A stretch of 64,000 nt of DNA from Psammoneis japonica (GCA_008632985.1 QPGO01000255.1:1-64000), one strand, 5' to 3'; positions 2,331 through 58,849 are shown, numbered from the stretch's first letter. Notes: generated from the sequence alone by a model not told the origin. Program-made: numbers and translations.

Positions 2331-3639
2331 TACTGTATATGTTTTAGCGACTGAGAGTAAGTGCTGCGGCGTCACCAGTTGAAAAATCGTCACTTTCTGC
2401 GTTCATCGTTTTCTGCAACTGAAACCGATACTGATGCTTTGAGTCTCTGCAAACCAAACCTACCAGTGATAACTCTAGAGCCCTTCATGAGCCTTTCTAA
2501 GCAGCTGGAAGGATTGCAATTGGAACTCCGTTGTGTCACAAACGCAAGACGTGATGCCCATGCCGACAGCAAAAAACGCAGCTATGGGTGAGTCGAATAA
2601 GTCGATTGCACTCAAACTTTCAAAACGGCATGTTGCACTTATGATGTGTCTCGACATTCAGAACATGGCAAACATCGTTGGGTCGACGTATCTTTCATGG
2701 GGGATCTTTTTCTACCGTTGTGTTATAAAGAGGTTGATACATTGGTTTGGTTTCCGGGGGCTTCGGTTGCGACACACGGCATGATAAACAAACTGTTGCG
2801 TGCCTCGACTCCTCGTGACTCAACACTCAACTGCGCGGGACGTTTAACACGTAACACTTGAATGGTCGACAACGCTGCGGCGGCAAGTTCTTTCTGTTTT
2901 TCTCATTTTATATCGTTTTCTTACTCACTAAAGATCATTGTTGCGTTTTGTTACAGCTTGAAAGGTGGATGGATCGTCTCCTGCGGTCGATCATGGTGTC
3001 TGTTGTGTTGGCATGTTTTTCAAGTCGTTGGTGCCAAAGCGCATCCGTTTAGGAGCTTTGTGCTTCATCCCACTCTACATCCTTTGGTGAAGATGAGGCG
3101 GTGGCTCAAGCAGTCGAGGTCTCTTGCGCGTAGCGTGAGTCCCTGGTTTCGGCGTTTGATTTTCTTTGTTGTTCGCACTTCGGCACACGTCCTCTAACAC
3201 GGCAAGGGAAATGAACGGACGTTTTGGACCGGTGGTTCTTAATTCTTGCTATCGGTTCCTGCTCATATTCTCGTGTATTTGCTTCTGGCGGGCTTTTTCA
3301 CTGTTCAAACGATTGTGGACGTGCTGAACGTAGGGGAGTTGGGCGGCGCGAGCTGCTGTCACGGTCGCTCCTTTTATCATCGCTTGCGGAATGGAAAGGC
3401 TAATTTCGACCGCTTTGAGCTTGCTAACGATTTATTTCAACTTCCGCAGTGACACTTTCTTCCCACCATTCAACGTGATCTGGACACATTTCAACACGTT
3501 TTGCTAGTGTTGCATGTCCGAAGCGACAGCAGAACTGTCGAGAAGACCGTACAGCGGCATTTTCTTCAGCATCCTTGAGCAATGAAGCAGCAGATAATGT
3601 ATATAGATGACTCATGGTTTGTCACTGTTCTTTATAGTG

Positions 3640-5590
3640 TTTGTTGACCCGTCGCGTTGGACAGGCAGAGCAACACCCAACTCAGGATTTGTCACTCCAT
3701 GACTCAGATGATCCAGAATCTGCAACTTCAGAGACTCCAGAGGGAGCAGAGCTTGATGAGCTCAGCAATGACAGTGACGATGAATTGCCCTTGTTGATCA
3801 TCATGACTCACATGAAGATCTAGATGTTGGTTTTGATGAAGCAGAGCCTGTGCCACCAGCTCCAAATGCTGCTGCTGCTCCCACTCGGACTTGCAATGAC
3901 CACACTGTCAAGAAACCAGATTGCATCTTCATTGAGTCCATGAAGGCCAAAATCTGCACCCCACCCAACAAGTCACACTGGCTGCACATGAAAATTCCAA
4001 ATGCTTTGTCAGGTCAGAGACATTGAACAAGCAGTTTTTGATGACACTGCATTGGGAAAGCATCACAAATGCCCTCAGATCAAAAGACTTGCGTGCTGTG
4101 ATCAAAATCTTTGACAAAAATGCTGGTCAAGAATGTGGGCGATGCACTCAAAGAAATCCAACTTGGGAAGAAGGAACAAGTGAGCCTGATTGCACAGCCC
4201 ATCTCCACCAGGCTTGTGACATCAAAGTTGACTCCCTTGCCACCAAGATTGGATGAATGTGCTCCCACCCACTTGGGCCTTTGCCCTGATTGATTCATCC
4301 AAAAATGTGATGCCAATTTTTTGTCTGTGGAGACAAGGAGCAGCTGGAAGTCATTGATCATCTGATGCTTCAGCTCTGGTTGTAAATCAGACAGCAGCCC
4401 AGCTTGTGGTCATGCTGTCTCAAATTTTGGAGATCTCTGCCAAGCAAGTCAATCATGTCACTGCTTTTGCACATGCTCCCATCAGCACGGATCCCAAATG
4501 GGGTGCCATGATGCCCAAAGAGTGGGGGTGCACTGGCGCATGTGTGCAAGGATGCTCCAAGCCTGACAAAGCACTGAAGCTCAAGAAGACCATTTGCAAT
4601 CTCAAACAAGGACCGTGCAATTTTTTTCCTGCAGCTGAAATCAAAGCTTGAAGCTGGGCTTCAATCGCAAAAGGACGTGGGCTCATGCCTCTTTGTGTCT
4701 GACAAGGTCAGAGTGCATCAACAAGGAGGTCAAAAAGTTCAAAATCAGTGGTGGTGTGTCCTTCAAAAACTCAGATTCTGCTGCATTTTCTTTTGGGCAT
4801 CCATGTCAATTGTGATGCCAACAATGGCTCAACCAAGCTGACCCAGTGTGGCCTGGTGGCCAAGTGCGCCATTGATGCTCTCAATGCAGGTGATCTCCAA
4901 AGGCCCAACACCTGCACCAGCGGCTCTGTTGGTCTGCGTTGGTCAAGGATGCTGATGAGACCCACAGAATGGAGCCCCCAGTTGTGCCAGTGTGGCTGGC
5001 ATGCTCCAGTGGTGCCTCTGAGGCCGCCCCAGGCCCCCAACGTTGTCACCTGTGCAGCTGCTGGCCCAGCAGCCAGGTTTGTTTTTGGCCCAAGCTGCTC
5101 ACATGAGCTGGCCCTCATGAGGATCAGCAAACTCATCAGGGGCTCACTTGAGGAAGAAGGTTCAGCCCCCAAGCCATCTGGGGTCTTCAGCGCCAATGTT
5201 TTTGTCAGTGCTGCTCAGAGTTTGCCGGGGCTGTGCCCTCACGAAGACAAGCAAGACCAGGCTTGTGTCAAGAGTCAATCAGGACTTGTGGCCTGCATTT
5301 CAAACTGTCCTGTCATTGAGTCTGGCAAGCTTGCACTCAAGATTGCTCTCTCCACCATGGAGGCAGAGTGCCGCCCCCTCCCCAGTTGTGCCAAAGCCGC
5401 CCTTTCCCTCCCTTTCTCTGCACCACGCAAGCCACTTCTCAAGTGCTGGAGCTGGTCTGGGAGCTGTCGAGACCACCAAGACTGCCTTGAGAGAGGGCAA
5501 TGCTGGAGCTTTAATTTTGGCCAATGTGGAACCTGGACAAATTGCACCAAGGTTGTCCCAGCTCTGCTCTGTGGTTGGCAGCTTCTTAGT
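3640..5590 (+). mobile_element. Degenerate Ty1/Copia (CoDi-like) pol: RT and RNase H remnants
   Basis: KQVNHVTAFAHAPI (consensus ~KQVDYTAAFVHAPI), LKLKKTICNLKQGPCNFF (~LKLKKSLYGLKQAPRNFF), KIALSTMEAEC (~EIALSTMEAEY) and EGNAGALILANVEPG (~EDNAGAL). Multiple stops and frameshifts. Confidence 0.85.
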
Positions 5591-5629
5591 TCAAGAGGCA
5601 GTGTCATTGCAGTGCGAGCTCATGCGTGC

Positions 5630-6990
5630 TCATGCACACAAAAATTTCGCGCTTGCACCAAATTGTTTTCCCATGGGAAAGTTGTGCTGGAATGCTTGCA
5701 GACAGGAACGGTCAGAAAGAAGATCAAGCAGTCTACGTGGTGCTGAGTGCATTGAAAGCAAACTGTTGGGTTGTTGTTGTTTGTTTGTCATCCCATTGTT
5801 TGCCAAGCAACCAGCCCTCTGGAGGCAGCAAGACAACCAAGCAAACACACCATCATGGACGACGGCAAGCACAAGCACACGACCAGACTGGGGCGTCGCG
5901 CTTGGACTCCTCTGCTCTGGGATGTCTGTCTCACTCAGACTCTGCTCTGGGATGTCTTGCTTGGACTGGACAATGACTCACCCACACTGCTTTCTCACTC
6001 CATCTGATGACAGGATGTCAACCTGTTGGATGGATTGCTCTGAAAACACAGGAGGAAGTCGTCACTGATGCCATTCAGTTTGTGGAAGAAATCATCACCA
6101 CCAATGATTGCTCAGACAAAGAACTTGCAGAGTTCTTTTCAGAGTGTTCTCAGCACCATCATGGCTGCAACAAATGCCAGCAAGCATTCTGTTGAGCACA
6201 CATGGCATCCAAACANAACAATTTGAACTTGCACAGGACATCCAAATGTGGTGTGAAAGCCACCCTGAATTCATGTCGTGGCACCAGGTGTGTCAAGGAT
6301 CCTACACGGCGAACCAAGAGCTTCCCAAGTGGGACAATCATGAATCGGTGAAAGCAGATGGAGTGGTCAATCACAAGCCTGCGCCGTCCGTGGAATCATG
6401 GCTGCTCCTTCTCATCAAGCAAAGCCACACCTGGCTGGAGAACAAGAAAGAAGGATGGGAGGAAGGCCTTCCTCATTGTGGTGCACCAATCTCAGACTTT
6501 TTCAACAAGCATTGCATGACAGCTGGTTCCTTTGTCACACGGGAAGTGCGCTCCAGGATTGAGACGGCCCTCAAGAGCGCTCCGGAGCAAGAGGAGCTTG
6601 AATTTTGCGTCCCCATGACACCACTGCCAACAATGACCCCTCATCCCACAGTGCGGCATGTTGCCTGCTGAGTCCCCCGCAGTTGTTCCCATTGCACAAG
6701 ATTTGCGTGGACGAGGTTCAAGACATGAGTCAAGCTAAGATCGGTTTGCCATTTTTGGTGAGCACAAATCACCCTGATTTTCTTTTTCTGGCTGGTGACC
6801 CTGCTCAGGCTGTGGCCCAGGGTGTTGACTTTTGTTTCAAGGTGGTCCGTTCTGTCATTCACATGATTTTTGAAGGCAGGGAGAAGATTGAGCATTGGCA
6901 AAAACTCTGCCACAACTTTTGCAGCCATGAGGGGATGTCCTGAAAGTGGCCAATTCTGCACTGGGCTGTCTTCTCAAGGCTTTCCCACAG
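5630..6990 (+). pseudogene. Degenerate fragment of a TRANK1/LBA1-like UvrD-family helicase gene
   Basis: ORF 6605..6943 reads ICVDEVQDMSQAKIGL...LFLAGDPAQAVAQGVDFCF...LCHNFCSHEG, matching UvrD motifs II/III/IV (YVDEVQD, GDxAQ, NYRS). Confidence 0.7.
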
Positions 6991-7782
6991 CAGCATTGAA
7001 GCTGGAGCATGATGCGGGACTTGTTCAGGGTGAGCTTTAAGTGTGCATCAAACTGTTGCCTTTTGCCATTCTTGAAAGCAAGCATCACTTGTCCATCTGT
7101 TGGCTTGTTTTTCCTTGTTTTGTTTGAAAGGACTCCAGCCAGGACTGCTGACCAGTGACCACAAGGAGCTGCCGAGCTTCTTTGCATTGCAGACACCAAA
7201 AAAAAGCAAAAAGAATGCTCTTCAAACCCTTGGACCACTTCAAACAGTGTTGAATGTTGGCATCTGCTTGAGCCGCCCAGCAAGCTGTTGGCACCTGCTC
7301 AAGCCACCTGGCAAGCTGTTGGCATCTGTTTGAGCCACCTTGCATGATGCAGCGTGCACTTGAGCCGTCTTGTTTGAAATGGCATGAACTTGAGCTGCAC
7401 CACATGATGTGACATTTTCCTGTGGAAACATGGACAAAAAATCAAAGGAAAACAAGAAGTTGAGAAAACTAAAAAATGCATTGAATCAACAGATTAAATC
7501 AAATGCTTTGGAGTGATGGGATCATCTTGCTGAGAATGTGAGAGAATGAAGAAACAAATTTCGGCTCCAGAGAATGTTTTCATTTGTTTTCATCATGAGC
7601 CAGTTTTTGGGTTGACAACAGCAGGTCCAATGGCATCAACACAAAATTGACAATGCTCATTTTCAGCCATGATGACCATTGTTGCAGGTGCTTTGTGTTG
7701 GTGATGTTTGTGGTGGTGGGAGAAACTGGAAACTGGCTGTTTCCATCCACACACATGCTGCTCACTGCAATGCTGTGCAATC

Positions 7783-7870
7783 ACCTGTGCTCCTGATGTG
7801 AGCACTGGTGCTAACTGTGATGCTGTGCAAGTGCCTGTGCTCCTGATGTGAGCACCGGTGCTGCACTGTG
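7783..7870. repeat. Two near-identical ~50-bp tandem copies (CCTGTGCTCCTGATGTGAGCACYGGTGCT)
   Basis: Direct reading of the sequence. Confidence 0.75.
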
Positions 7871-8559
7871 CCCCAACTGGGCTCTGTTTGTTTTGTGCTT
7901 TGCAGTGTGAATTTGAAATTTTTGACATTTTGGCCTTTTTCTGTTGTTTTCGCTTGACGTTTTGGCAAGCGTCCCGCAGTGCTGCAGCGTGCACATGTGT
8001 TTTCAAAATCACAACAATCAAAGCCAGACATCTCTGCAAAACACTGTTTTTAAAATCACAGACTCAAGTGGTGGATTGACAGCATGTGGAGGATGGCATG
8101 GAAGATGCACTTGGTGGCGGAGCACAAGGTGATTCAAGTCATTTGAAGCACAATGTGGTGATTCGATTGCAGCAACAAAGCCTTGCTCCTGCCCAAGAAC
8201 TCACATGGGTGTTGCACCACCACTTCACATGCACGTCAAAAAAAGACTGCAGTTGGACATCATTCTCTGGAGGAGTGTCACTTCAGCATTGCAGCAACGG
8301 CAATCATTTGCAGCATTTTGGTCACTGCAAGTGTGGCAAAAGAAGACAGTGCTGTCTTTTTAACAGAAATGCCAGACAGATCTAGATTGCAACAAGATGA
8401 TTGTGTGTGCAGAGTTCTTGCCGGTCAAACAGTCATGGCATTGCAGCACAAGGACAAAATGCATTGGAGCTGATCACACAGTTGCACAAAGACAGAAACA
8501 ACAGAGGCTTCCTGAAGGACTGGCAACATTTTCATGCTTGAAATGGACCTCTGCTTTCC

Positions 8560-9330
8560 CCAGTCATCACACCAAATGTGTCTGCAGACACTTGTCCAAG
8601 ATGCCACATGGTGCCCTGCATGTGCGCACTGAGGAACCCTGCTGTTTGGACCTTCCCAAGCCTGTGTGCAACTGGGCTCAAACCATGAGTGGTGGTGATG
8701 CAGAGGAACTCCTCAACCAAGACACACCCAAGCCACTTGGCAAGTTTGTTGCCATGACTCATCATGTTGATGCAAACTTGTTCCATTGCATGCTTGCCAG
8801 TGGGTGTTTCATTGTGGGCATCATTCATTTCCTCAACAAGTTTCTGGCTGGCCAACTGGTTGTTCTCCAAGAATTGAGCCACAGCCAAGACTGCAACACA
8901 TGGATCTGAGTTTGTTGCTGCCAGGACCTGTGTTGAACAGATCATTGATCTGCGCATCACTTTGCGTCACCTCAGTGTCCTGATCCATGACACCTGTCAC
9001 ATGTTCGGGGATGACAAGTCAGTTGTGGACAGTGCTGCCATCCTGCACTCCAAGCTGCACAAGCAACACACACCACCCTCTTGTTCCTTTGCATGCGCAA
9101 AGCCATTGCCTCCAGCTTCCTTGAGCTTCATTTCATTGAAGGCTCGCACAACCCAGCTGATGTCCTCAGCAAGCAGTGGGGTTGCCCCCAGATCTGGAGC
9201 CTCCTCTGCCCCCCCCCCCCCCCTCATGTTTTGGAACTTTGATCCAAGGCCTTTGTCCAATGTCCAATCTGATGTCAAATCTGTCACTGCAGACTCTTCA
9301 AGCAAGAAACTGGGGAGTGACAGGATTTGA
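8560..9330 (+). mobile_element. Second Copia family: RT C-terminus/RNase H, polypurine tract and start of the 3' LTR
   Basis: HLSKMPHGALHVRTEEP, PKPLGKFVAMTHHVDANLFH, ATHGSEFVAARTCVEQIIDLRITLRHL and HMFGDDKSVVDS..HSKLHKQH. Followed by GGGGAG (9312-9317) and TG at 9318. Confidence 0.85.
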
Positions 9331-10094
9331 CCAAGACTTCAGCTTGTTGCACATGATTCTGTGTGCTCTTGGTTCCATGCGTGGTGTGCAATGCAGTTTG
9401 CTTTGAAGCCACTCAGCTCACAAGAACAACAACAGCAGTGCTGACATCATGCCACACATCTTTCAGCTCCTGCAGTGGTCTTTGCATGGAGACTCATCTG
9501 CCATTTAGACTGCCGCAAGGACCATTGTTTTCTTCCATCCATTTCCTCCTCAATTGCTGTCAAACTGTTTTGAGCGAGTCAAAAAGATTGGCCCCAACCA
9601 ATCAAAAAAGTTGGTTTCTGGCTCTGCAGGAAATGGGGGATTGTGCAGTGGCAAAAAATGGACAGAAATCCTGCAGCTGGGAAAGCCAAGTGTGCTGCTG
9701 TTGGGGACAATGTGACCTGGGGCACAGTGCTGCAAGATCAACCTTGCAATGCCCAACAACAGCTCTTGAAGTCTTGCCCTGGGCCCATGAGAGCTGTGTC
9801 CTCAGCTTGCAGCCATCAGCTTGGCCAGCGCCACAATGGCACACTTTTGGAATGAAATGACTTGGAAATTAAAGTTTGTTGTTGCTTCATTTTGTCAACA
9901 AGCACAAAATTGTTCTGGAGCACTTGTTGAGAACACAGGATTCTTGTTGTCAAGCACAGATCAGCTCTGAACAAGAACAACAAAATTTTCCAGACAATGA
10001 AGACATTGGGGGACAGAGCAACCAACCAAGCAAACTCTGGAGTGAGGCAAAAGAAAACAGGGATGGCAATGCTGGTTTGCAGCTGCCACAACTT

Positions 10095-10230
10095 TGCAAA
10101 GTTGACAAAGTCACAAATGACAACAAAGTTGACAATGTTGCCAAAATTGCCAAACTTGACAAAGTCGCCCAAATCAGCACAGTTGCCAAAGTCAGCAAAC
10201 TTGACAAAATTGCCAAACTTGACAAAGTTG
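10095..10230. repeat. Degenerate 9-bp tandem repeat (AAAGTTGAC/AAAATTGCC)
   Basis: About 15 imperfect units, translating as KVD/KIA/KLD triplets in ORF 9876..10598. Confidence 0.75.
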
Positions 10231-10319
10231 TGCCTGCAAAAGTTTTTCTCTCTTCTGCACATGAGACAAAGTGCTTGATGATTCACACTTGGGCAAATGT
10301 TGGCTCAAATGTTGACACA

Positions 10320-10530
10320 AAAATGTCTGCAATTGCTTCATTCTTGTCAACACACACAAAACCAATCCCCCATTCCTTGTTGGCACAAGGAATGCATGCA
10401 TTGCAGATCCAAACATGGGTGGAGCATTTTGACTGTGCCCAGTTTTGCATTGTTGGTTTGGATGAAATGTCCAGCGATCCCTCCACAGCACTTTGGAACG
10501 GGTCTTGGATCATTTGGACAATCCTCCTCG
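10320..10530 (+). pseudogene. Sulfotransferase-domain C-terminal fragment, degenerate
   Basis: AQGMHALQIQTWVEHFD.AQFCIVGLDEM...ERVLDHLD resembles the xGxYxxQLxxWxxxF...xxRVxxFL segment of heparan-sulfate-type sulfotransferases. Confidence 0.5.
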
Positions 10531-11279
10531 TGTTGTTGACACTCCCCCAACTTTGGCCCAAACAATCAATGGGACTGTGGTTTGGATGCCATTGTTGACC
10601 AGGACACACTGGCTCTTTTGGCCTGGTTTTGTGAGTGGCGCAATGAGATTCTCCAATTTTTGTCGAGCTTGTTGCAAATGTTTTGTGCCTTTAGAATGGC
10701 GATTGTCACCCCAGCGTTGTGCAACTCTGTGCAGGAGGATCACAACAGCCAAATCAGTTGCTTTGTCATTGGCTCTCCACTGAAGCCAACTTCCACAACT
10801 CTGCTGGAGACACACCCTCAAGAACAATGAGGAGCAGCTTTTGTTTGTTGGTTTTTGAAAGCGGCACTTCTGGCAAGTTACTTCGAAGTAGAAGAGATTG
10901 TGAGTTGAAAAAACGCTGTGTTATGATGTGCCGCATGCAAAGTAGAAGCATTCTGTCACACACACCAATTAGAGTGTTTTGTGTTAGAGACGACTCAACG
11001 GAAATGAATCGCCGGAATCACTGAATAATGCACATTTCCCACGACCCCAAATGTCGAACATACGAAGTGTACACACAGCAATTACACAGAACTCATGTCA
11101 CAGTCTCTCCAGTCTTGAACATTGCATGCTTTTCGGTTCGACAGCGGTTTTGCCAAACGTTGACAAAAACATGAACCATGACGGCAAACCTGTCCCCTGC
11201 GTCTCTGACTCTCTTAGAGCATCGCTGAAACAAGCTCACTTTCTTTGATTCGCATTGAACGACACCTTTGAAAGCTTTT

Positions 11280-12480
11280 ACGATGACCATGACAAGCATG
11301 GTTGCGCACTCTGATGCTGCTTGCCACAAACAAGACCCGGACGCCCATCCCGAGGTCAACCTTGCCGAAGAGCAAGGCTTTGTCTCGCTTGGACGAGACA
11401 AAAAGGAGGTGAGTTGACTGCGCATTGTGTTTCAGTCGTGCAGTTTGCTGCAATCGCTTTCGTGACTTGCTCTCTCTCTGTCGCTCTCTCTTCTGTTGTG
11501 CTGTCGCTGCATCTGGTTTCTTCTCATTGTCTCACCATTTCGGTTTCATTTGATCTACAACGACTGCAGGCTCTCGAGTCATGTCTCACTTGTTTCAACA
11601 ACGAGTGGACTCTCGATGAACGCTTTGACGGGCTCTGTGGGCTGGAGATTCTTGAAATCGAGGCCATGGAGAAAGGTCAAGCCGCACCTCTGAATCTCCA
11701 AGAGAAAGAGGAGGGAGCACGCCCCGTCTCCTGGGGTGGCGACGAGCAGAAAGTTCTCGAGCACTCTCCTGTGAAAAATGTGAGTTGATCATTCAGCGCA
11801 TTGCCTTTGAGTCTCACGGCTTTGCTGTGATTAGATTGTCCTCATCTCACTGTCGCTTCCATCGAATTGCCTTTCCGCAGGTTCTCGCATCATGCATCCC
11901 AGGTGATGGGCCCTTTGCGCCAGAGATTCTTGAATGCGAGAACAACGAGACTGCTCAAGCGCATGCTCCAAAGAAAATGAAGCGACCCAGTTTTGATGAC
12001 AGCTGGGGAGAGCCAGAAGTGCTCGAGCATTCTCCTCTCAAAAATGCAAGTCATTCATTCGACATGTTGTTTGCCAGCATGCCATGTGTTTGGGGACTTG
12101 TTGTCTCATCGTCGTTCGAATTTATGTGTGTTTTCCTGCAGGTCCTCGTGTCATGCGTCCCTGCTTTGGCCGCTGAATTTTCTGCACTCAACCGGCGCAG
12201 TGCGACTGTGCCAGAACGCGAGGACAAAGAGACGGCTGAAGCAGACACGCCGATTCTTCAGAAGGAGGAAAAGCGATCCAGTTTTGATGGCTGGGGAGAG
12301 CCAGAAGTGCTCGAGCATTCTCCTCTCAAAAATGCAAGTCATTCATTCGGCATGTCATCTACAGCATGAAAGTTTCAGATTTTTTGCTGAGTTTGGGGAA
12401 TTGTTGTCTCATTGTCATTTCAATCCATGTGTTTTCCCCTGCAGGTCCTCCCGATCTTGCCTTGGGCAGTGGCTCCCAAA
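11280..12480 (+). pseudogene. Multi-exon gene remnant with three repeated exon-intron modules (WGExxVLEHSPxKN)
   Basis: The motif ends at ~11780, ~12045 and ~12335. Each copy is followed by a donor-like G(T/C)RAGT..ATTCA and later a pyrimidine-rich ..CAG acceptor. Confidence 0.55.
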
Positions 12481-12662
12481 AGGGCACGAGTGAGTGACGA
12501 GGCATCCTTGCCAAGATGGTTGTCGTTCCCTTTCTTGAAAAAGGTCAGATCCAGCAGTTGCTTGTTTGCAGGATGCTCGTCCAGGTTGTCATTCTTGAGA
12601 GCACAGACACTGGTGCCCAATGCACATTTCTCAAATGCCAAACAGATGTTGCTGGTCTTGAG

Positions 12663-12926
12663 TGCACGCATCTGATGGTCTGATGTGAGCACCTTGTGGA
12701 ATGAAATGCACTCCACTGAGCTCTTGCCAGCCTCTGCCATGACTTGGCAAAACAACTGTGCAGATTCATGGGGAGTGGATCTGCCCCTTTGCGAATGATG
12801 CACGCATCTGATGGTGTCTGATGTGAGCACCTTGTGGAATGAAATGCACTCCACTGAGCTCTTGCCAGCCTCTGCCATGACTTGGCAAAACAACTGCAGA
12901 TTCATGGGGAGTGGATCTGCCCCTTA
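12663..12926. repeat. Tandem duplication of a ~130-bp unit
   Basis: GCACGCATCTGATGG...GGATCTGCCCCTT occurs at ~12663-12789 and ~12799-12926. Confidence 0.85.
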
Positions 12927-14551
12927 GCAAATGGCACCGCTGTGAACTTGATGGTTTGTGCGCCCCTTCAAGAGGCAATTGCCTTGGCAGAACAATCCAA
13001 AGCAGGTCCAATCTCTGCATTTCCAATGGATGCAACAGTGACGCTGAGCAATTCACCAGATTGCACCACTCTCCATGGGCACAGGAGCTGCTTTGAAAGG
13101 GGCCATGCCAGTTTTGATAATTCTTTTGCCAGTCTTCTCCACTTGCTGGGTGGCATTGGCATTGATGGCCATTGTTTGTTTGTCCAGCTTGCTGTCCAAA
13201 AGGGTGGCCATTCGATCTTCCGCCGACTGCTTGGCTTTTCATGCCGCATTTGATGCCTCCAACTGTGCTTGCAACTCAAGCATTTTTTCATTGTTCCTTC
13301 TTTGCCTTGTCAGCAGCAATCTTGGCTTTTGATGTTGCATTTGATGCCTCCAGCTGTGCTCACAACTCTGCAATCTCTTGTTGTTGTTGTCCCAGCTTTG
13401 CATTTTGCTCCTTCATTTTTTGATCTTTTTCATTTTGATCCAAGCACAGGTCATCAACAAGATCTTTTGTAAAACTGGTTTTGTCTTTGATCACACTGAC
13501 TTGGATTTGTCATGCAGCTGCATCATCAGCTGCTGCCATGACCTTGCTTTCTTCCATGTGAGCCCAATGATCTGCAGACACAAAAAAGGACCATGCATCA
13601 TGCTGGGGGGTGGCGGTCCACGATGGCCACCTTCGAGCTCCCCTTTGACATCATCTTTGAAAGTTCTGATGGGCACAAGAGTGTTGATGGTAGGAGGTGT
13701 CACAGCAGACATGGGTGGTGGCTTGCTGCTGTCATTGGCACTGGCAATGTTGCTGCTGTGCACGGAAGCTGCGGGTGCTTGCAGGGCATGGTCGATCTTC
13801 CATTGCATGTGTCTGGACCGTGTGGAAGCAAAGAGCTCACAGATGGGCTTTGGGCAAGGGACATTGCACAATTCTGAAAGACCATCCTTGATCTCTTGGA
13901 CAGACCATTCCGTCTTTTGGGGGTTCTTGTGCATGACAGCTGAAATGGCTTGGTGCGTGTCGCGAGGCTCCAACTCAAACTTGCCCGATGGCTTGCGAAT
14001 GAAATTTGATCCATCAAAGCTGAAATGATTCTTCTTGACTGATCACAACTCTAACCAATCACTGTTGCATCCTTTGGTCTGAAAGTAGATGGTGTTTTGC
14101 TCGACAGATCGAGATCCAGCTTTGGCCAAACAGAAGCGCCAGGCGTCGTGCATTCGCTGATCTCTCACAACTTGCTGCAATCAACGCATCGACGGTGCGC
14201 ATGACACATTGCGTGCTGCCAACAGTGGTGACGTCCCTGTCGGGTGCCAGTTCTGCACGACAAACGCGGCGATCGGAATCCTTCGTCATGGTGGATTTGT
14301 TGTTGCTCGTTGTGTTTTTTTTTGCCGTTTGGAGATTTTGCTTGCGCCCCGCGTGTTTGACACTCGAGATTCAAAATTAAAAATAGTCTTGTACGATACT
14401 ATATGTTGTTGATTATTTCTAACGGTCAGAATAACGAGAATACGTTATCATTTCCTAACGTGACGAAGATAAATATAGAGAAAGATTTCCCCCGCATGGG
14501 TCTCAACAAAATGGAAAAAGAGGCATTATACGTTGTCAAAAACACAGCACC

Positions 14552-21630: not shown

Positions 21631-22899
21631 CCTCTTATGCCGATGCCAGGTTGCGATATGATGGCGGCCAAGAATTCGAGTGCAAGGCCCACGGCTCAAT
21701 GTTTGTCGTCTCTGTTCTTCAACCGACTGGGGAATAAGGCATCAATGATGCGATTCTTACTGAAGTGGTAGAAGCAAAGAAAACAAAGAAAAGAAAATGA
21801 GCGACGACAAACGTTGCGGCGGAGCGAGAATCGATTGCGGTATGTTGGTGGTGCGCGTTATGCATCCGGCAATGAGATATCTCACTGAGCTTGCCGCGAA
21901 TCATGCGTTGCTGAGAGAGAGAGAGCGTGTGTGTTGGTTTGATATTGCTGAATATCTGGTACGCCCTTGTCGAATCACTCGTACGATGTGTCTACCGACA
22001 GAGCAAGGCAATGTGCGGCGTGAGTTTGGTTCTAGCGGTATGTTTGTTTGAACTGTGGATGGAGCCGCGAAAAATATGCTCTATGTTTGTTGATTCAGAG
22101 CTCTTGTTACACAGAGACTTGATGAGTTGAGTCCATCTCCTATGTTTTTGTGTACGCCTGATAGCAATAACAAGGCTCACAGTAGCCATGGCCCCTCTGG
22201 AATACCGCTCTTCACGTATTGTTTTTGTTTTTTTGCGTTGTTGTTGCTGCTATTGAATTTTTACTTTCCACTGCTACTGCTGAGTTCAATCCATCAAACT
22301 TATGCACATAACTTGCACGCACTTGTTTCCAGTGTTGGAATGCCAAATGTGCCGAAACCCACCTGAGTGGCGATCCGTTCTGAGTCGGTGGTGGAATGGC
22401 TTGGCTGCGACAACGGAATGAGTCTAGTTGCCGACTCAGGACACATCTCACATGCAACGTGGTTGGATTTGCTTTTTGACATAAAAGAGGCTGCGGCGAT
22501 GGTGGCAAACAATTTGTTGGAAAAATCATCTTGTGGCTCCGCGTTTGGTCCCAGAAATGCACACTCAAGGCATTTGTCTTGCAGGTCATCAGCGCAGCAC
22601 AATGAACGGTGGATCACAACTCCACCAATGTTTCTTGTTGGCACAGTTGGAGAAATGAGTTGCTCATCCATTGGATTTGTGAGGATTCAACAGTTGGGAC
22701 TGCAGCTTCTCCCATTCCTCTTGTCAGCTTGGTGGCAAAGGCAACCTTTTATGCTTGTGGAGGCTTGGGCAATTCCTTGTGGTGTGCTTGGCTTTGCCAC
22801 AAGCACTGCAGTCTTTCTTCCTTTGTTTGGCTGGTTGGAGACAGGTTGCATCGTCAGAAGATCTCATGAATGCCAATTGGCTGCTTCCTCTGGGAGAGC

Positions 22900-25300
22900 T
22901 GCAGCTGCCGGCACTCCGAGGGAGTTCATGCTTGGAACACAGGCGCTTCCGTCAAGACGCATCTCGCCCAGCTTGCAAAATGCCAGGGATTGGTGCAGCT
23001 TCTGGGTTGTCAAGAACTTTGGTGTTCCCAGCTGCATCATCAAAGACAGCACGCATGCTCAACCCTCATTGTGCTCTGGCCACAACAGCATCCAACAAAG
23101 AAGAAAAAGCCGCCATCTTCTCTTGGTTGCCTTGCAGAAGCCTCGCAATGTTGGAGGCTTGAGTGTTCAGATCCTGGTGCGTGAGGTGCACTGGCATGTC
23201 TTCTTTGTCCAACCTGTGTTCTCTTGAATGAACCAAGTCATTGTTTTCAAAGTCAACCTTGTCATCATTGGCGTGTGCCGTGCCGCTGCAATTCTTGACT
23301 GTTGTCCATGTCATTGACACTCGGCAGTGCATTCTCACCAACTTTCTCAATTCCACCAATCTTCTCAATGTCCAACAATGTGCAAGCATGATCTGGCATG
23401 CCTGCAAAGCATGTGTGTTTTGACAGCCAGTGTTTGATCCATTTGGATGGATCAACCTTGCCATCTGCACATTGTTCATGATGGCATTGATGACAGAAGG
23501 CCAAGCGAGTGCTGCACGGGCATCGCTTTCCAGGTTCAATCACCATCAGCTCTTTGCATGTTTCATCCTTGCTGCAAGGCCAAACATGCTTTGTTCCATC
23601 TTCAGCTGTTCTGACTTGGAGCTTTCGACTCTTGGCAATGGAAGGAAGAAATGGATTTGTGCAAGCCCGTGCAGAGAAGCTTCTCTTTGCAAGCTCATCA
23701 TCTCCCACAAGCAGACCTTGTTGATTGGATTTGTGCCTTGAGGGATGGACCTGAAGTTGATCTTTTTGCTTTCAAAGTTTGCAGGTGAGAATGTCTTGGT
23801 GTTTTGGCAAGTGCTGGATGTGCTTGGCAATTGACCAACTGCCCTCCCAAGCCAAGATTGGTGACAATGCTCAAATGATTTTGCTTGGCTGGTGTGGAAC
23901 CATCAAGATTCAAGTTTCCTTCCTGTTCCCTGAGATGGCATCCAGCATGGTGCTCTGAATTGTCACAAACACTTGGCAGCACTTGCAGCTTCACTGCATC
24001 TGCCTGCGCCATTGTTTTTGCAAAATTAAAAGCTGTGCCCCACTTGTTCTTGGTTTTGGACTCTGTCACAGTTCTGAGACAGTTCTGGATTTGCAGGCAG
24101 TGCACTCATCCAAAAGCTTTTTTTGATGAGAACACTTTGTCAAGAGTGTGATGGTGGTCACCCTTGAGAAGCATGCTGTGGTCGCCTTTGTTGTTCTTGC
24201 ATTCCAGCTCCAGCAAACCAACAAAACCTTGAGCAATGTGTTGGTGGGCAAACACCATTTGGATGCAATTGATGCTCCAACGCGGCTCCATGTCCGCCGC
24301 CAACAGAAGCATCCATCAGTGGTGCTTGTGGGCTTCTTCTGTGCAAATGCACTCTGTCACACACTGAACCTTCATTTCACAATCCTTCACACAAGGTCCA
24401 ATGTGTGGCCATCCTTGATTGTTGTGCTGTCATTTCTGACCATCCAGAAAAAGAATGTCCCCACAATGCAGCAAGTCCTGTTGCATTTCTGCCACAATCC
24501 AGCAAAGTGCTTTGGTTGTCCTGTGTCATCACATTTCAAATGGAAGTCAAACGCAAAGAGCTCTTTCTTTGGATCTTGCAAACACTGCAGTGCGCCCCAG
24601 GTCAACCTGCTGTTTCACATGATCTTCTGCAATGTTCATCTGAGATTTAGCCTCACCAAAGAGCTGTTCAAAACAATCAATTCATCTGACACAACAGGCA
24701 CATTTGACGTGAGGCACTTCACATCTTGAGGTGACACCTCGTCATTTTCATCATTGTGCAGTGTCCAGCTGGCAACCTGGCTTTGGAAGTTGGGCATGAA
24801 TTTAGCATCAGCATCCACATGCAAAGGCAGGTGCTTCAGCAGTTTGTGACAAAGGTCTTCTTCTGCCTTCATGCACAGGTGGTCTTGAAGACCACCAACT
24901 GCACTCTCTGAAGTCCATCCAAGCTTCACAGCTCTCACAAGTTGAGCATGACTTGCAAACACTTGACCCTCAACAAAAAGCTTCTTGGCTGCCTTTTGCT
25001 TGAATGCGTCCTTGCAGCATTTGTTGGATTGCTCACAGCAAATCTCATTGTTGGAAGGAGCCTGTGCTTGCATCTCTTCCTCAAAACTGGTGGCGACCCA
25101 GTTCACGGAGATTGCAGAGACTTGCTTTGCTTCTTGATTTCATCTTCTGCCATGTTTTGTGCCCCACATTGATCAAGCCAATCGGGTGGATGCAGCATGG
25201 GAGAAATGTCCATGTTGTTTCCTGCTTTCTTGCTGTGCTGCAACAGCACAGTGGGGCAACTTGGACACTTGCGCATCTTTGTCAGCTTGGGTGTGGACAG
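22900..25300 (-). mobile_element. Degenerate MULE (Mutator-like) transposase with SWIM zinc finger
   Basis: FDFHLKCDDTG, CVKDCEMKVQC..ECIC.EE, ADMEPRW...FAHQ, LKGDHHH (~LRGDYYH), NLNLDGSTPAKQNH (~GSVPAEQNH) and SWIM-like RCPCSTRLAFCHQCHHE. Many stops. Confidence 0.75.
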
Positions 25301-25599
25301 CACACTCTTGGGTGCATGTGGCATGGCCTCTTTGGTGTGTCAGTGTCTTGTCATCATGACACAAACAACAGTGTGGATGCACTCGACAGTGTTGTCATTG
25401 TGTCTTGTCGCAAGATTTTGTGGCGCACTCGCACCAGTCTTCATCAGCTGACAAAGGGGGGAGGGGGGGGACATCTGTGGTTGGAACAAGTGATGTGTGG
25501 CAGTTCCCATGTGACAGCAACAATGACGTCGAACATTTCATGAAAAAGGCGTGGTGAGCATTTGGTGAGCAACTCCATGGTGAGCAATTAGCAGCTCTC

Positions 25600-26040: not shown

Positions 26041-28599
26041 CAGTCGAACTCCCAAATTGTGATTTTACATGCCGAGTGGCAAGTTAGTGGCATCCAACGA
26101 ACAAAACCAAAGAACCGAGCACTTCAACGCGTGGTCTCCAACACACTTCGTACTGTGTCTATAATAACACTTCATCCGGCACCGGCACTTGACCATGGGT
26201 GAGCCGAATGCTTGTGCCTCTCGACGGATGCGGTCCCTTGCAGTCGGTGCTGCATCCCCTGATAGCAGAACAGATGACTTTTCTCGTTGGAATTATCTGG
26301 CACGCTTCAGGAACGCTCGTTTGATGGAGCAGCCCTGTGCTGCGGCTGTAAGTGGCTGTTTTCAACGGATGGGTGGTGTCAAGCTCACGCCCAGAGCCTC
26401 CAGTGGACGTCTAGTTCGATCCACATCACTTCCTGCCAATCTGACTTCCATCATAATAAAACAGTATCATGCCGTCCGCAACAAGATTTCTCTGATGAGA
26501 CTTCCTGGCAAACGCCTAGAAGTGGAATCTTGTGATTTTACACAAACGATGCTATGCTGAACAAGCTCTTCCTGTCCGGGCGTCACCATGATGGCGCACA
26601 CTTAACAGGAATGGACAGCACTGCCAATTCATTCCTACGTAACATGAGCACAACAAGCCGCACGCAGCTCTCATACTGGACACAAAAGAATGGTTTGTCT
26701 TAAAACTGTTATGGCTTCTCTGTGGCATTTGATCCATTTTCAAAGCAAATCTTCTTTCGAGCGAGCGACCGAGTTAGAGCCGTTTTCATTGGCTGAAGAT
26801 CTGACTGTATTTTCAATGTCAATAAAGGATCCCCAGCACGGTTCACCTACAAGTATTGGCTAGACGGAGAAGGTGCTTTCCATGGGCTTAAAAGTTTTTT
26901 GGAGTTGACGTTATGGTCGACAATTGTGGAACAATACCAAGAACCGCTCATACAATCAGTATTCTCTTCCACGGGGGGATGCACATGTAAGACAGTTTCT
27001 TTGTGAACTGCGCGAAAATACGAGGGGGCTTCTAAGTGGGCCGCTAGAGTGAAACATTGCCGACGACAGAACTTGGCCATTTTATGATCTGGTAATCTGA
27101 TTGCGGCAAGGACGACACAACATTTACCGTATGGTAATGGAATCTATAATGTAATGGGCTGTCGTGCATGGTCTGTCCATCTTGATTCACCGTTCAGGAA
27201 ACTTGTGAAGCTTGTCTAACGTTACTGCTCGTGGACGCTCATGCGGGCTTGAAGCGCTTTAGCTAAAAGTTGGCCCTTGAAACGTTCATCTATGAATATA
27301 AGGTACTGGCATCAAGAGCATGTGGTGGCTGAGCTTCAACTGCTTTCTTGTCCCTCGAGATTGACCCATGAGGTCGTCCTGAGACATCTCTACTAGACAG
27401 ACTGTGCGCATGCTCCCTGGGAAGACATTACTAATACCAACATAAAACGACTGCTAGTGTGAGCGTAGCTAGCATTCCATACCAGGTAGGCGATTGCAAC
27501 TACAAACGATTCAAGAACATTAGCTACTGTACAAGCATCCGATGCCGCAGTGGCCACTAGACGTACCTCTTGTGCGCTGTTGTCTTTGTCTTACTGTGGA
27601 AAGATGGAAATGAGTGATCCTTGGAGTGCCAATCTAAATGCGTCATTTTATCTTTTCCGTTTGCCAACAATGTTGTCCCCCGTGAGCAGACGCACAAAAC
27701 CAAATCGACACGTCTCCACTCATTTTTCAACACCTGCCACATCAACAACATCTTCCGTAGTTGGACGACCTTCTGATGTGCTTCCTCATGCTTCTTGCAT
27801 CTGCTGATGTTGGGCTCAAGAAGCCCCATGACAGTCTCCATCACAACAAATCACCTGCATCGTGGAGATCATTGCCAGCGTCAAAAGAAGAGCCACCAAA
27901 ACCAAGGTCATTGTGGATCTGCTGCTCCACTTCTGGTTGCTCCAAGTCAGTGAAGTTCTGCTTAAATGACACCCATGGAGCACTCATCATGAATCATCCC
28001 AAATCCACAAGGTGGGATGTGCAGCCAGGTGTTCCGACATCTGCTGGAAAGGCAATCATTGCATTCTCTCTTGCTTCCCTGCAAAGGGCTCAAGCAAGTC
28101 ACAAACGTCAACATGGTCATCTGCCTCCTGCAAAGACATGTGTGGGCAGTTTGAAAGAGATGGTCCCACTGGGGAGTGCATTCTTGAATGGTTGGGCAAG
28201 CATCCTCAGTCAGAAGGTGTTGGCGCATCAAGAGCTGTTGAGGAAAGGCACGTCAGCACCTCCTCTGAGTTGCCAGAAGTCATCCCAGTTCAGTTGCCCA
28301 TCAATCAGTGACTTGTGCATGTTTGAGAAAGAACCAGGGCCCTTGCAGTGTCTGAAGAAAGTTTCCTTTTTTTGAGTGCATCAAACATTTTAAGAAACAA
28401 CTTGGGTTGGTTCTCACACCCAGCTCTTCAACAGTTGCTTGCATTGCTGTTTTGGAGGAGACAATGGGTTTGTCTTCTCTCAAGGATTGAAACCCAATGG
28501 TTTCCAGCAGTGTTGTGACAGTGTGAGGTGTTGTCCCTCAAGGTGGTGCGGGTCCAAAGTGGGCCAGATTCTGCAAATTGCCAAAGTCACCTCGCCACT

Positions 28600-30600
28600 T
28601 TAACCCTCTCCTGGACCATGAAAACTTGAACATTTCACACAACAAAGTGTCCAGACTGCTTGTTTGCACTCCCCTTGACTTGTTTGTGGAGAGGAATCAC
28701 ATGTTTTCATGTGTTTTTAAAGATGCACACTGAAGCTAATCAGAAAGGTGCCAAAATCATGACACTCAAGTTTCACAGAGTCACACCAAATCAGGCAACA
28801 CCGTGCAGCAATCACCAAGTTGTGCAGCCACATTGCAGCCACACTGCATGTCAATCTTGAGTTTGTCAGGAAATTTGTTGACCCTTCTTGCATCCAGGTT
28901 GGCAGCAGATGCATGGATCACTGCTTGTCCTGTGCTTGTCAATGCAGGTCAACTCTTGACCCCAATCCTTTTGACAAAGCGGTGCTGTGTCATGCTCAAC
29001 AGAGCACCATGTTGTTGTGTTGCACTTGCTGCACTTTTGACACATCCAACAACTTTGTGAATGTGGTTGACCAAAATTGCACCTGATCTGAAGTTGCTTT
29101 TCTGTTGGAAGTCTTGCAGCATTGCCAGCATCATCAGTTGTTTGCTTGAGTGGTTGTCCTGCTGCTGGCATGGATGGTCTGCTTTGAGTGAGATGGTCCC
29201 CCAGTCAGGCCTGTGCTTGAGGCCCTTTACAGAGCACACTAAAGAATTTCCTCACCTTCATCTTTTCCCTGCAAGTGGTTTGATTGTGGTGCCAGCAGAG
29301 TTGATGAAGATCCATCACTGACTCTCCTGCAGTGGTGACACAGAGCTGGAACCAGCAACAGCGAGCTGGCCACAATTGCTCCAAACCAAGAATGTCCTGT
29401 CTTTGCTTGTTGTGTTCATCAACAATTGGGAGGCATTTGTGCTGAAACTCACAGAGTTTTGGGTGCAGAAGATCCTTTGACACCATTTCCCTGCACTCGC
29501 TCTCAAAATTTGACACACGAGGGGTGTCAGATGGAGCCACAATTGCCCACATGTTGACATGAAATGTGCAATGTTTGATTCACTCCACACGCACCCAAGT
29601 GCCATGATCCAATTCACTCTCACACTTTCCATTGCAAGCAAGTGTGACCTGTTTTCCAGAGCCAGATGAGTTGAGGTGTCATGCCATCTTGATTCATCAT
29701 GTGACTGCCTTTGGAAAAAGCTGCGCTGTTCTTTGCAACAAAAGTCGAGTGAACATTGAGCCATTTCCAGACTTCCATGAAACTCACGGCACTGCCGAGC
29801 CATGCATTGCCTCCAACCCAGCTGCGCTCACACCAGCTTGCTCCACTTGACACAGCATTTCAGCCACATGTGGAGGTGTGCTGGAACCATCAGGGAGACT
29901 GGACTGTTCACAGCAGAACTTCTGCCTTTGATGATGTTTGGGCAGCCAAGCAGGGTCATTGTGGCACCAGGATGCCAACAGCGCACTTGGCCCCATTCTG
30001 AAGCATGGCTCCAAGAGTCGTCACAGGCTTGCAGGGCTTTTCATGCAATTTGGAACCCCCACCGCACCCACCTTTGATGTCTTTGGTCTCCAGCCAGACA
30101 TTGACTCGTCCAACAGCAGCAAAAAAGTCATTTTCACACTGCGCGAATGCCAAGAGAAAGGTTCGCAGCAACCAGCCCCACAAGACCACTGGACAAGGCT
30201 CAACAGTGGTGTCTTCTCTCAATGGTGCAGGCACACACCTTCCTCCATTCACTTGCACACCACACAGCCTCCTTTTTGGTGATCAGCAGCACCCTGTGCT
30301 CATGCTGCCTGTGCCTCCTTGGGATTCTGAAACTTGTGTTCTCAGATCTCGTGCGCGTGTGCGCTGCCTTTTCCTGCACAAAATGCCCCCCCCCCTGTGG
30401 TGTTTTCCCAGCAGCCACTGCAGTGTGGGCCAAAACTTCATTGCTCCAACTTGGCATTGCACACCATGCATCCACCCCTTCTCAGCAGGGCTTTCTGTTC
30501 TTGGAGCATCGGGGTGTGACACAGTTTTTGGAGCCCGCCAGACAGACAAGAACGCTCCTGATGTGAAAGCAATGCGCTGATGGCCATTGGCAATGTGGCA
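28600..30600 (-). mobile_element. Degenerate piggyBac-like (DDE_Tnp_1_7) transposon
   Basis: LLDESMSGWRPKTSK, KPCKPVTTLGAMLQNG, VGGNAWLGS (~GDAWFGS), PIVDEHNKQRQDILGLEQLWP.RCCWFQL and a Cys-rich tail. TTAA|CCC end at 28600-28606. The opposite end was not identified. Confidence 0.8.
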
Positions 30601-31146
30601 AAATCACATTTGTAACTCACCATGAAGGCAGGTCTCATGCTCACTTTTTGGCTTTTGCACCAGGACAACATGGCAGTCAGTGTGGAGCGGCGCTGGCAAT
30701 CCACGCGGCGAGTTCTCAGAGGGATCGGCGAGGAGGAGACTTGTGCAGATCAGTCGGCAAGTGGTGAAATTCCAACACTTTCAGAGCCTCTCCCTCTCAG
30801 TCACTAGATCCCTTGCTGACCAGCTCCTTCGCTGTTCGTCCAAACTTTAACAATTTACTTCAGCCGTTCCCTGCCTGTGCGACACGCCATTCGCACGCAT
30901 TCCATTCTGATCCCCCGCCTGTCATTCACACGCGCCTCTACCTTGGAAACCTGCCGGTGCCTCTTCCACTTTCACACACTCTCTCAAGTACCGGTAGGTG
31001 GAGTAGAAAGAGTACGGGCGGGGAACGGGAGTGGCTTCGACCATGCCGCCCGTTGCTGCTGTCCCGTAGTTTAGTTGCCAGATAAAGCCTTTTGTAACAT
31101 TTCCTTTTCAAGCCTTTGTGAAATTTCCTTTTAACTCTTGACGACG

Positions 31147-53537: not shown

Positions 53538-53539
53538 GT

Positions 53540-58547: not shown

Positions 58548-58849
58548 GATTGCTAGGATCGATTGCAATCAGCCTCACTTTGATTGCAATCGCAATTGCA
58601 AACTCGATTGCAATGACCTGATTGTCGGGAAAGAGCCGAGGTCGCAATCACAATCGACTGTTGCAATCGATTGCAATCGAAATTCGAGCTCTTTCATTGG
58701 CTGGAATCAGTGAAATGGCTCGATTTCTTCGCACGGAGTGCGCTCTTGCGCAGAGAGCAATCGACTGATTGCAATCTGATTGCTGCAGAAAACTTTGCAA
58801 TTGGTTGACCCTGGTTTGGACAGGGTCTAGCCAGGGCCCCAAGGGTTAA
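58548..58849. repeat. Cluster of GATTGCAATC palindromes ending in GGG|TTAA (possible transposon terminus)
   Basis: Full palindromes at ~58561, 58582, 58669 and 58767, plus several partial copies. GGGTTAA at 58843-58849. Confidence 0.6.

Follow-up and report, generated by a model that had tools for sequence, protein, structure and literature searches.

What removes nearly every TpA dinucleotide from several kilobases of a chromosome and spares the genes next to them? The question is raised by a stretch of 64,000 nucleotides from Psammoneis japonica (GCA_008632985.1, QPGO01000255.1:1-64000), hereafter the window, in which two remnants of Ty1/copia retrotransposons lie in DNA that has lost almost all of its TpA sites. 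An earlier note on this DNA, made from the sequence alone, had pointed to positions 4400-9070, where tyrosine codons seemed to have turned into cysteine codons (A to G) and histidine codons (T to C) on one and the same coding strand. It had concluded that both DNA strands are hit, that editing of retroelement transcripts is not responsible, and that the lesion is made in chromosomal double-stranded DNA at the palindromic TpA. Having compared the window with homologous proteins, with repeat copies and with metagenome contigs, we think it probable that a transition hypermutation aimed at TpA has acted on dead mobile DNA in the chromosome of a diatom. The host lineage is indicated by a LOG-type gene (51234-52364), all of whose matches with a named source come from diatoms, with identities of up to 64%; the window is therefore a segment of a diatom chromosome. 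The dinoflagellate spliced-leader motif has 0 matches in it, and a dinoflagellate origin was therefore discarded; a protein atlas offered weak hints of lineage (scores 0.81-0.83).

TpA loss in four blocks, its direction and its two outcomes

Positions 4400-9070 contain 12 TpA dinucleotides, an observed/expected ratio (o/e) of 0.04, together with 70 CpG (0.24), 537 TpG (1.81) and 514 CpA (1.79). Base composition predicts 297 TpA, and the rate of the normal regions (o/e 0.579) predicts 172, against which the deficit has a Poisson probability P(≤12) of 3e-57; the erasure of TpA described in the earlier note is confirmed. The same state is found well beyond this interval. Across the window, 38 of 128 bins of 500 bp have a TpA o/e below 0.15, and these bins fall in four blocks (Table 1), which together make up about one third of the window and lie between normal genes. 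The latter, among them a SET-domain gene, a fusion of spermidine synthase and AdoMet decarboxylase, VPS13 and the LOG-type gene, have a TpA o/e of 0.5-0.7 and a CpG o/e of about 1. The block edges are sharp, with TpA density shifting within about 200 bp: at the left edge of block 1, TpA is dense up to position 3635 and thereafter occurs only at 3821 and 4383, and the right end of this block (13500-14300) has TpA only at 13691, 14052 and 14086. The GC content of the blocks (0.44-0.58) is not lowered.

Because the stop codons TAA and TAG are lost, open reading frames (ORFs) are overabundant in this DNA; those of at least 90 amino acids number 4.6-5.6 per kb in the TpA-free blocks and 2.5-3.4 per kb in control regions. 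A Pfam search with 122 block ORFs of at least 85 amino acids gave matches at chance level only (E 0.02-0.05) and recognised neither of the two mutated copia remnants. Beyond these remnants and a helicase fragment, described below, nothing in the four blocks was recognised.

The copia remnants, both on the + strand of block 1, were located by tblastn with full-length homologues. Element 1 is about 30% identical to these; Element 2, which belongs to a second copia family and is spread over frames 3/1/3, is about 70% identical over its best 64-73 amino acids to many full-length polyproteins of 1850-1915 amino acids. The homologues carry PF07727, and the homology to RVT_2 and RNase H follows the copia domain order; long terminal repeats and an integrase were not found for the remnants. 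Both hold frameshifts, stops and many substitutions of diverse kinds, but the fate of their tyrosines is telling. None of nine conserved tyrosine columns is kept in Element 1 (Cys 2, Leu 2, and one each of Phe, Gly, Pro, Val and Trp), and eight such columns in Element 2 now read His (5), Cys (2) and Ser (1), all on one coding strand. Since tyrosine is written only TAY, TpA has been lost at the columns that now read His or Cys, and not gained.

The individual cases named in the earlier note hold up, with one exception. In Element 1, the cysteine codons TGC at 4595 in TICNLKQ (4589-4609) and at 5369 in MEAEC (5357-5371) stand where 45 and 39 of 48 copia homologues have tyrosine; in Element 2, the histidine codons CAT at 8899 in ATHGSEF and CAC at 8968 in LRHL each stand where the consensus is tyrosine in a fraction of 0.96 of 27 full-length homologues. 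The exception is QVNH, whose CAT at 4454 falls in an ambiguous column (Phe 20, Tyr 15, Ile 5, Val 4 and Cys 2 among 48 homologues). The solid cysteine cases thus lie in Element 1 and the histidine cases in Element 2, on the same coding strand, and Element 2 by itself shows both kinds of change. This element was also subjected to a codon test, in which a mismatch at a conserved column counts if restoring TA or CG from TG or CA suffices to remove it. The TA or CG rules fit 29 of its 52 mismatches (TA>TG 7, TA>CA 5, CG>TG 7, CG>CA 12), whereas transitions in other contexts fit 4 of 52.

A 722-bp repeat, present in the window in two copies, shows the same changes at the level of DNA. Copy A, inside block 4, is hypermutated, and copy B has normal TpA; the aligned spans (52810-53537 and, inverted, 57647-58375) are 89.7% identical. 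At the 51 TpA sites of copy B, copy A has TG 30 times, CA 14 times, CG and TA twice each and other dinucleotides 3 times; that is, 46 sites have turned into TG, CA or CG, and 49 (96%) are lost. Of 74 substitutions, 49 are transitions inside TpA, 9 fall inside CpG and 14 fall outside both, the last (11 of them transitions) being spread over an estimated 540 or so positions. TpA sites are thus converted at about 90%, compared with a change of about 3% elsewhere. An ORF of about 100 amino acids in copy B contains 4 tyrosines, and its equivalent in copy A shows changes of Tyr to Cys, Tyr to His, Tyr to Arg and Ile to Met.

Three sequencing runs of one sample were available in contig form, and two of them, X1 and X2, were compared with the window. 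Copy B lies in an island of normal TpA of 1.08 kb within otherwise depleted DNA, is flanked by an 8-bp direct repeat (GATAAAAT), is absent from one X1 contig, which joins 57648 to 58371 and skips 722 bp, and has a summed contig depth of about 3800-4800, as against about 130-300 over genes. For these reasons copy B is the younger of the two: it is a young insertion of a dispersed repeat, and copy A is an old copy that was mutated along with its surroundings.

This bears on whether the polarity might be reversed, such that changes from C to T at CpA or TpG, as in repeat-induced point mutation (RIP), made the TpA-rich copies, or such that a TpA-free composition is intrinsic to, or selected in, foreign DNA. 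A comparison of two copies does indeed give no direction on its own. Yet a functional pol needs the tyrosines that have here become histidine or cysteine, the TpA-bearing copy is the young, high-copy insertion, and the normal genes have a TpA o/e of 0.5-0.7 and not of 0.03. Likewise, a segmental duplication of 1.8 kb in the window (31298-32467 and 34665-35271 versus 38823-40597), which is 99.6% identical overall and 99.5-99.7% by part, is unmutated; its 6 differences include none of the TA or CG transition type. With these observations, the reversed direction is next to impossible.

The pattern recurs outside the window. In metagenome contigs we located 80 loci of the family to which Element 2 belongs; their median TpA o/e is 0.705. 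One of them, L029, a contig made up of transposon sequence only, has a TpA o/e of 0.02 over 2766 bp. Its pol frame runs for 466 amino acids without a stop and contains 1 tyrosine, 15 cysteines and 22 histidines, with CVDD in place of YVDD and ATHGSKF in place of ATYGSEF. Apart from this, the copy has decayed little, so the TpA changes are rapid relative to ordinary decay; one TpA-free locus in 80 does not represent a frequency, because the loci were ranked by their likeness to an intact query. The contig closest to L029 (L062, 73% identity) has a TpA o/e of 0.07 over its positions 1-500 and of 0.33-0.69 further on, possibly a block edge within the contig. Among 295 proteins gathered in the transposon and helicase searches, whose median tyrosine content is 3.6%, 8 are without tyrosine and reach up to 558 amino acids. 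Several public entries (P0125, P0220, P0384, P0289 and others) are copia-like proteins of 108-558 amino acids with no or almost no tyrosine and with raised cysteine, histidine and glutamine; a cluster look-up of tyrosine-free proteins yielded neither names nor organisms. Such tyrosine-free 'proteins' are probably ORFs called on TpA-free transposon remnants that lack TAA and TAG stops.

From 72 of the 80 loci we derived a consensus, accepting as TpA sites those columns in which at least 60% of copies agree on T and on A, respectively. The pooled reference copies read TA at 1197 of 1368 such positions, TG at 34 and CA at 26. Element 2 covers 9 of the consensus sites and reads CA at 5, TG at 3, AG at 1 and TA at none; L029, at 19 sites, reads CA 7, TG 6, TT 4, TA 1 and CT 1. 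On the sense strand, TA>TG and TA>CA therefore number 3 and 5 in Element 2 by consensus, 7 and 5 in the same element by the codon test, 6 and 7 in L029, and 30 and 14 in the 722-bp pair, which amounts to no strong bias towards A to G. The TG:CA balance is 0.48-0.52, or about 1:1, in each block and, on the sense strand, in both copia remnants. Runs tests gave no strand-coordinated clusters in the blocks and remnants (z from -1.4 to +1.9) or in the 722-bp pair, where the TG and CA outcomes are interspersed (P=0.54). Within 57435-57456, four TG of the window are TA in three of three X1 contigs; these are too few for a cluster, and paralogues are possible.

The claim that both strands are hit is thereby borne out, and with it the dismissal of RNA editing. 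Hyper-editing of retroelement RNA by an ADAR-type enzyme, with reverse transcription afterwards, would account for the sense-strand changes from A to G at TpA, and ADARs do favour a 5' U. However, the sense-strand changes from T to C are as frequent as those from A to G in each of the three copia counts, the two outcomes are balanced in both remnants, and sequence other than retroelements is changed as well. This explanation is highly improbable, and we reject it on account of the symmetric T-to-C changes.

The sequence outside recognisable retroelements includes a fragment of about 110 amino acids from the interior of a UvrD-like superfamily 1 helicase, with the motifs VDEVQD and LAGDPAQ, which corresponds to no recognisable retroelement gene. 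It shows Tyr to Cys at 6704 and Ile to Met at 6935, and of its 20 mismatches in conserved columns, 8 can be explained by TA or CG transitions, compared with 4 for transitions in other contexts. The 722-bp repeat and whole blocks of 3-11 kb are affected too, so the process is not restricted to recognisable retroelements. The earlier note had seen the same pattern in host-gene fragments and in DNA transposons; the former stands, given this host-gene-like fragment and the block-wide dinucleotide counts, but no element could be identified as a DNA transposon.

TpA is not the only dinucleotide to be depleted. CpG o/e is 0.07-0.4 in most of the blocks (0.10-0.41 in block 1, except for 0.71-0.94 at 11001-12500), and this loss supplies part of the TG and CA excess. 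Both at 4400-9070 and in Element 2, CpG depletion with a gain of TpG and CpA fits, by sequence, the decay of methylated CpG. CpG methylation is known from diatom transposons, and in Phaeodactylum it depends on DNMT5a (PMC9998398). Methylated-CpG decay can account for the CG>TG and CG>CA changes here, but it is unable to remove TpA, and a CpG o/e of at least 0.6 is retained in 9 of the 38 bins poor in TpA, namely at 11001-12500 and over most of block 4. Furthermore, copy A of the 722-bp repeat retains 36 of the 45 CpG of copy B, a loss of 20% as opposed to 96% for TpA. The loss of TpA is therefore faster than that of CpG and independent of it, and the CpG component would represent ordinary methylated-CpG decay, overlapping with the TpA process but separable from it.

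Table 1. Coordinates of the depleted stretches, element remnants and repeat copies in the window
Feature	Position	Strand	Remarks
TpA-depleted block 1	3636..14300		10.7 kb; contains 4400-9070; TA o/e 0.00-0.20 per 500 bp
TpA-depleted block 2	22483..25588		from TA counts; no Pfam match above chance
TpA-depleted block 3	27759..30612		from TA counts; no Pfam match above chance
TpA-depleted block 4	52478..57477		TA o/e 0.00-0.17; CG largely kept, o/e 0.34-0.95
Partly TpA-depleted stretch	58555..60300		o/e 0.12-0.30; overlaps first exon of gene 59352-63892
Element 1, degenerate Ty1/copia reverse transcriptase and RNase H remnant	3996..5624	+	tblastn with full-length homologues, about 30% identity
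Element 2, C-terminal ~210 amino acids of second copia family	8574..9212	+	tblastn; frames 3/1/3
Internal ~110-amino-acid UvrD-like SF1 helicase fragment	6608..6937	+	motifs VDEVQD, LAGDPAQ
Copy A of 722-bp repeat, hypermutated	52810..53537	+	inside block 4
Copy B of 722-bp repeat, normal TpA	57648..58369	-	in normal-TA island 57478-58554

Site and chemistry of the changes

That both strands are hit does not by itself place the process in the chromosome, because a deaminase acting on cDNA also hits both strands. The blocks might accordingly be nests of copies that were dead on arrival, edited before integration by an enzyme that acts on single-stranded DNA in the manner of APOBEC3, but on adenine. 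Such a scenario would suit the pieces identified within 4400-9070, which are mostly copia remnants, the transposon-only contig L029, the sharp block edges, which could be element ends, and the young unmutated repeat copy beside old mutated sequence. On the other hand, 97-100% of TpA is gone on both strands, far more than one round of cDNA editing is known to change, to judge by APOBEC3 hypermutation, and copies without tyrosine could not pass through further rounds on their own. Moreover, the helicase fragment and the 722-bp repeat, with its 8-bp flanking duplication, are equally hit. In the chlorarachniophyte Bigelowiella natans, finally, mutations of this type arise in resident chromosomal DNA: a preprint describes mutation-accumulation lines in which, within two integrated viral regions, 230 of the 231 single-nucleotide mutations that arose are A to G or T to C, all at TpA (Mettrop et al., bioRxiv 10.64898/2026.01.13.699255, 2026). 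We consider editing before integration unlikely on these grounds. In agreement with the earlier note, action in the chromosome itself is suggested by the saturation, by the same state across juxtaposed fragments and unrecognised sequence, by the helicase fragment and the 722-bp repeat, and by the B. natans case.

In the process as we picture it, a palindromic TpA would become TpG or CpA according to the strand that is hit, and the two outcomes would accumulate about equally and interspersed, site by site, up to near saturation. All tyrosine codons, the ATA codon and the stop codons TAA and TAG would be removed, and coding capacity would be destroyed, as might be expected of a genome defence. 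A second process would turn CpG into TpG or CpA in most of the blocks. The TpA process would target domains, probably silenced chromatin, and its pace would be slow or episodic; it appears so because genes are spared, edges are sharp and the young insertion is untouched. As for the chemistry, the most likely candidate would be a polynucleotide deaminase that converts adenine to hypoxanthine in 5'-T-A, as proposed for B. natans. The earlier note had named double-stranded DNA as the substrate; the sequence would fit double-stranded and transiently single-stranded DNA alike.

The TpA sites that survive may reveal a further preference. In the four blocks, 57 of 73 such sites lie in TTA or TAA, compared with 280 of 774 in control sequence (Fisher P=4e-12), and both surviving TpA of copy A lie in this context. 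The pattern points to an extended context in which TA is a poorer target after a T, but the excess of TTA and TAA could also stem from the later regeneration of TA from TG or CA.

An in situ process at TpA could equally start from thymine, if a damaged or modified base (e.g. one like 5-hydroxymethyluracil) paired with G; T to C would then be the primary change and A to G its image on the other strand. The palindromic target makes the two indistinguishable, and enzymes that modify thymine in a preferred dinucleotide are known from other protists. We know of no thymine hypermodification in diatoms, however, and the one published hypothesis on this signature invokes an adenine deaminase. A thymine origin is therefore unlikely in our view.

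A trivial explanation would be that heavily modified, silenced DNA was misread, so that TA and CG were called as TG or CA. Block 1 contains a single N at 6217 and a run of about 17 C at 9206-9222, marks of a consensus assembly in low-complexity places, and a long X1 contig inside block 4 differs from the window. In contrast, the remnants also carry frameshifts, stops and other substitutions, the losses of TpA and CpG are uncoupled in the nine bins described above, and tyrosine-free copia ORFs occur in unrelated public assemblies (the 8 proteins and L029). One X1 contig is identical to the window over 52129-52618, including the first 140 bp of block 4, and the preprint on B. natans indicates that the signature was obtained there from Illumina data. 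Because of the other lesions, the uncoupling of TpA and CpG, and the recurrence of the signature in unrelated assemblies, a base-calling artefact is very unlikely.

Some of our observations weigh against hypermutation at TpA in the chromosome, or limit what can be said about it. Strand symmetry does not hold perfectly at every locus, as the 722-bp pair illustrates: its 30:14 ratio of TA>TG to TA>CA on one strand deviates from equality (P=0.023, uncorrected), and outside TpA it shows 8 changes from A to G and 3 from T to C. In Element 1, whose homologues are too diverged for the codon test (about 30% identity), 15 of 85 mismatches fit the TA or CG rules, compared with 17 of 85 for the control. 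In block 1, no more than about 2.6 kb out of 10.7 kb have been identified, and the remainder could in principle all be retroelement-derived. Over 53925-54413, the longest X1 contig inside block 4 and the window disagree at 22 of 488 positions, so the contigs back the exact TpA-free sequence of the block only in part. Neither the 99.6% identical duplication nor the young copy B contains a TA-type change, so there is no sign of present activity. Lastly, no result presented here bears on the choice between adenine deamination and a thymine lesion.

Should the process be real, a major group of phytoplankton would possess an undescribed mutational genome defence, and the B. natans process would be no single-species curiosity; it would also attack ordinary transposons, proceed to saturation and be traceable in environmental assemblies. 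Handles for finding the enzyme would come from the strict TpA context, from TTA and TAA resisting change, from the strand symmetry and from the independence from CpG methylation decay. For annotation, the consequences are practical: TpA-free blocks fill with long spurious ORFs, tyrosine-free 'proteins' are already in public sets, and repeat annotation of such genomes undercounts mutated transposons because profile searches miss them. A broader idea is that diatoms and chlorarachniophytes share a chromatin-targeted defence, widespread among protists of the SAR group (stramenopiles, alveolates and Rhizaria), in which a deaminase or its equivalent turns A:T into G:C at TpA in resident DNA, with a VTAB-like context. 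We put this forward tentatively, as possible but short of probable. If true, a shared pathway would erase tyrosine codons and two thirds of the stop codons from transposons and integrated viruses, would be the mirror image of fungal RIP, and would show up in environmental contigs; the enzyme behind it would edit A to G in chromosomal DNA by nature.

Genes and repeats around the blocks

The genes of the window are intron-poor; VPS13, for instance, is a single ORF of 2206 amino acids. The contigs of the runs show 1410 variant places relative to the window. Within VPS13, at 44001-49936, the X1 and X2 contigs depart from it by numerous single-base differences and short indels, which points to a highly heterozygous diploid or to a sample with more than one strain. 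The SET-domain gene has a lone in-frame TGA at 15350-15352, between MMNHRNG and WLNTK, and the ORFs on either side of it (14459-15349 and 15353-15802) share one frame; the gene could be a pseudogene, or the TGA a sequence error, a read-through stop or a recoded stop. The fusion of spermine/spermidine synthase and AdoMet decarboxylase (16113-18513) has one short GT..AG intron near 16490-16580. Fusions of this type are linked to the synthesis of long-chain polyamines in diatoms.

The gene at 59352-63892 abuts depleted DNA. Its first exon is poor in TpA (10 in 886 bp) and encodes a single tyrosine in about 233 amino acids; its second exon has normal TpA. Between them lies a 98-nucleotide GT..AG intron (60238-60335), which is skipped in one X2 contig that looks spliced, and the C-terminal part contains 159-bp tandem repeats (62437-63549). 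The hypermutation may have leaked into a transcribed gene here, or the TpA-poor exon may have been recruited from mutated DNA.

Block 4 contains a very high-copy repeat at 56007-56673, with a summed X1 contig depth of 87,831 (as against about 130-300 over genes). X2 depth is 0-1.3 over 52672-57340, and the genes are covered. The segmental duplication takes in a kinesin-like fragment, and one of its copies is split by about 2.2 kb of tandem repeats (32835-34312) with a TpA o/e of 1.5 and a CpG o/e of 0.37, a TpA bias opposite to that of the blocks. Another repeat pair, 21120-21632 and 25603-26040, is 63% identical.

Comparison with known mutational systems

The general picture in the window, with transitions in a dinucleotide context at the level of DNA, changes on both strands, inactivated mobile DNA and aberrant blocks between normal genes, is reminiscent of RIP in ascomycete fungi. 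RIP, which duplication sets off, changes C to T, mainly at CpA, and thereby creates TpA and lowers the GC content. The window shows the reverse, with TpA destroyed and GC raised; neither a gain of TpA nor a loss of GC is seen in the blocks, and the 1.8-kb duplication is unmutated, although it may be too recent to count. The process would run against the usual mutation bias from GC to AT just as it runs against RIP. Diatom DNMT4 enzymes group with fungal RID, and their function is unestablished according to PMC9998398.

Among the deaminases, ADARs resemble the process in changing A to G with a preference for a 5' U or T neighbour, but differ from it in that both strands and non-retroelement DNA are changed here. 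They are metazoan enzymes that act on RNA, and an edit could be inherited only if the sense strand is reverse-transcribed. APOBEC3 enzymes share with the process a deaminase-type hypermutation that kills retroelements. However, they deaminate cytosine, mainly in the minus strand (G to A in the sense strand), before integration and in a fraction of the targets, and the cytosine target, the strand bias and the partial editing all misfit the TpA changes in the window. Similar in context are the tRNA adenosine deaminases TadA and ADAT2/ADAT3, whose natural target A34 follows an invariant U33 and thus stands in 5'-U-A, resembling TpA; evolved TadA variants, the source of laboratory adenine base editors, deaminate adenine in DNA. 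To our knowledge, no natural eukaryotic enzyme has been demonstrated to edit chromosomal adenine with TpA specificity.

An ADAT2 homologue is also the candidate named for B. natans, whose hypermutation is close to the one described here. According to the preprint's Results and Discussion, TpA changes to TpG and to CpA on both strands, these changes are confined to chromosomal domains of mobile or foreign origin, and TpA depletion over the long term goes along with an enrichment of CpA and TpG. The rate is given as about 6e-7 per site per generation, 1000-fold over background, and 324 TpA-poor predicted genes are enriched in reverse transcriptase and transposase domains (bioRxiv 10.64898/2026.01.13.699255). 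The authors propose, as a hypothesis, an ADAT2-like adenine deaminase acting on DNA, and they note the likeness to the 5' U/T preference of ADAR (bioRxiv 10.64898/2026.01.13.699255). In the window, too, we find transitions at TpA, both outcomes, and local domains with the rest spared.

The differences between the two cases are nonetheless considerable. B. natans is a chlorarachniophyte (Rhizaria), and the host here is a diatom, that is, a stramenopile. There, as the preprint describes it, the process was caught active in integrated viral DNA, that of a giant virus and a virophage, in which many TpA remain (Rho 0.45), whereas the window contains transposon graveyards at saturation (o/e 0.00-0.1), known from the state of their sequence. 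The co-occurring CpG decay is undiscussed in the preprint's Results and Discussion, and the TTA/TAA bias of the residual sites is, as far as these sections go, found only here. In the full-text literature, subscription journals not covered, we found no report of TpA hypermutation for diatoms or other stramenopiles. What is new, then, is a further case, in a distantly related host, of a system so far known from a single preprint: here it is found in ordinary transposons, at saturation, and with a CpG decay that can be told apart from it.

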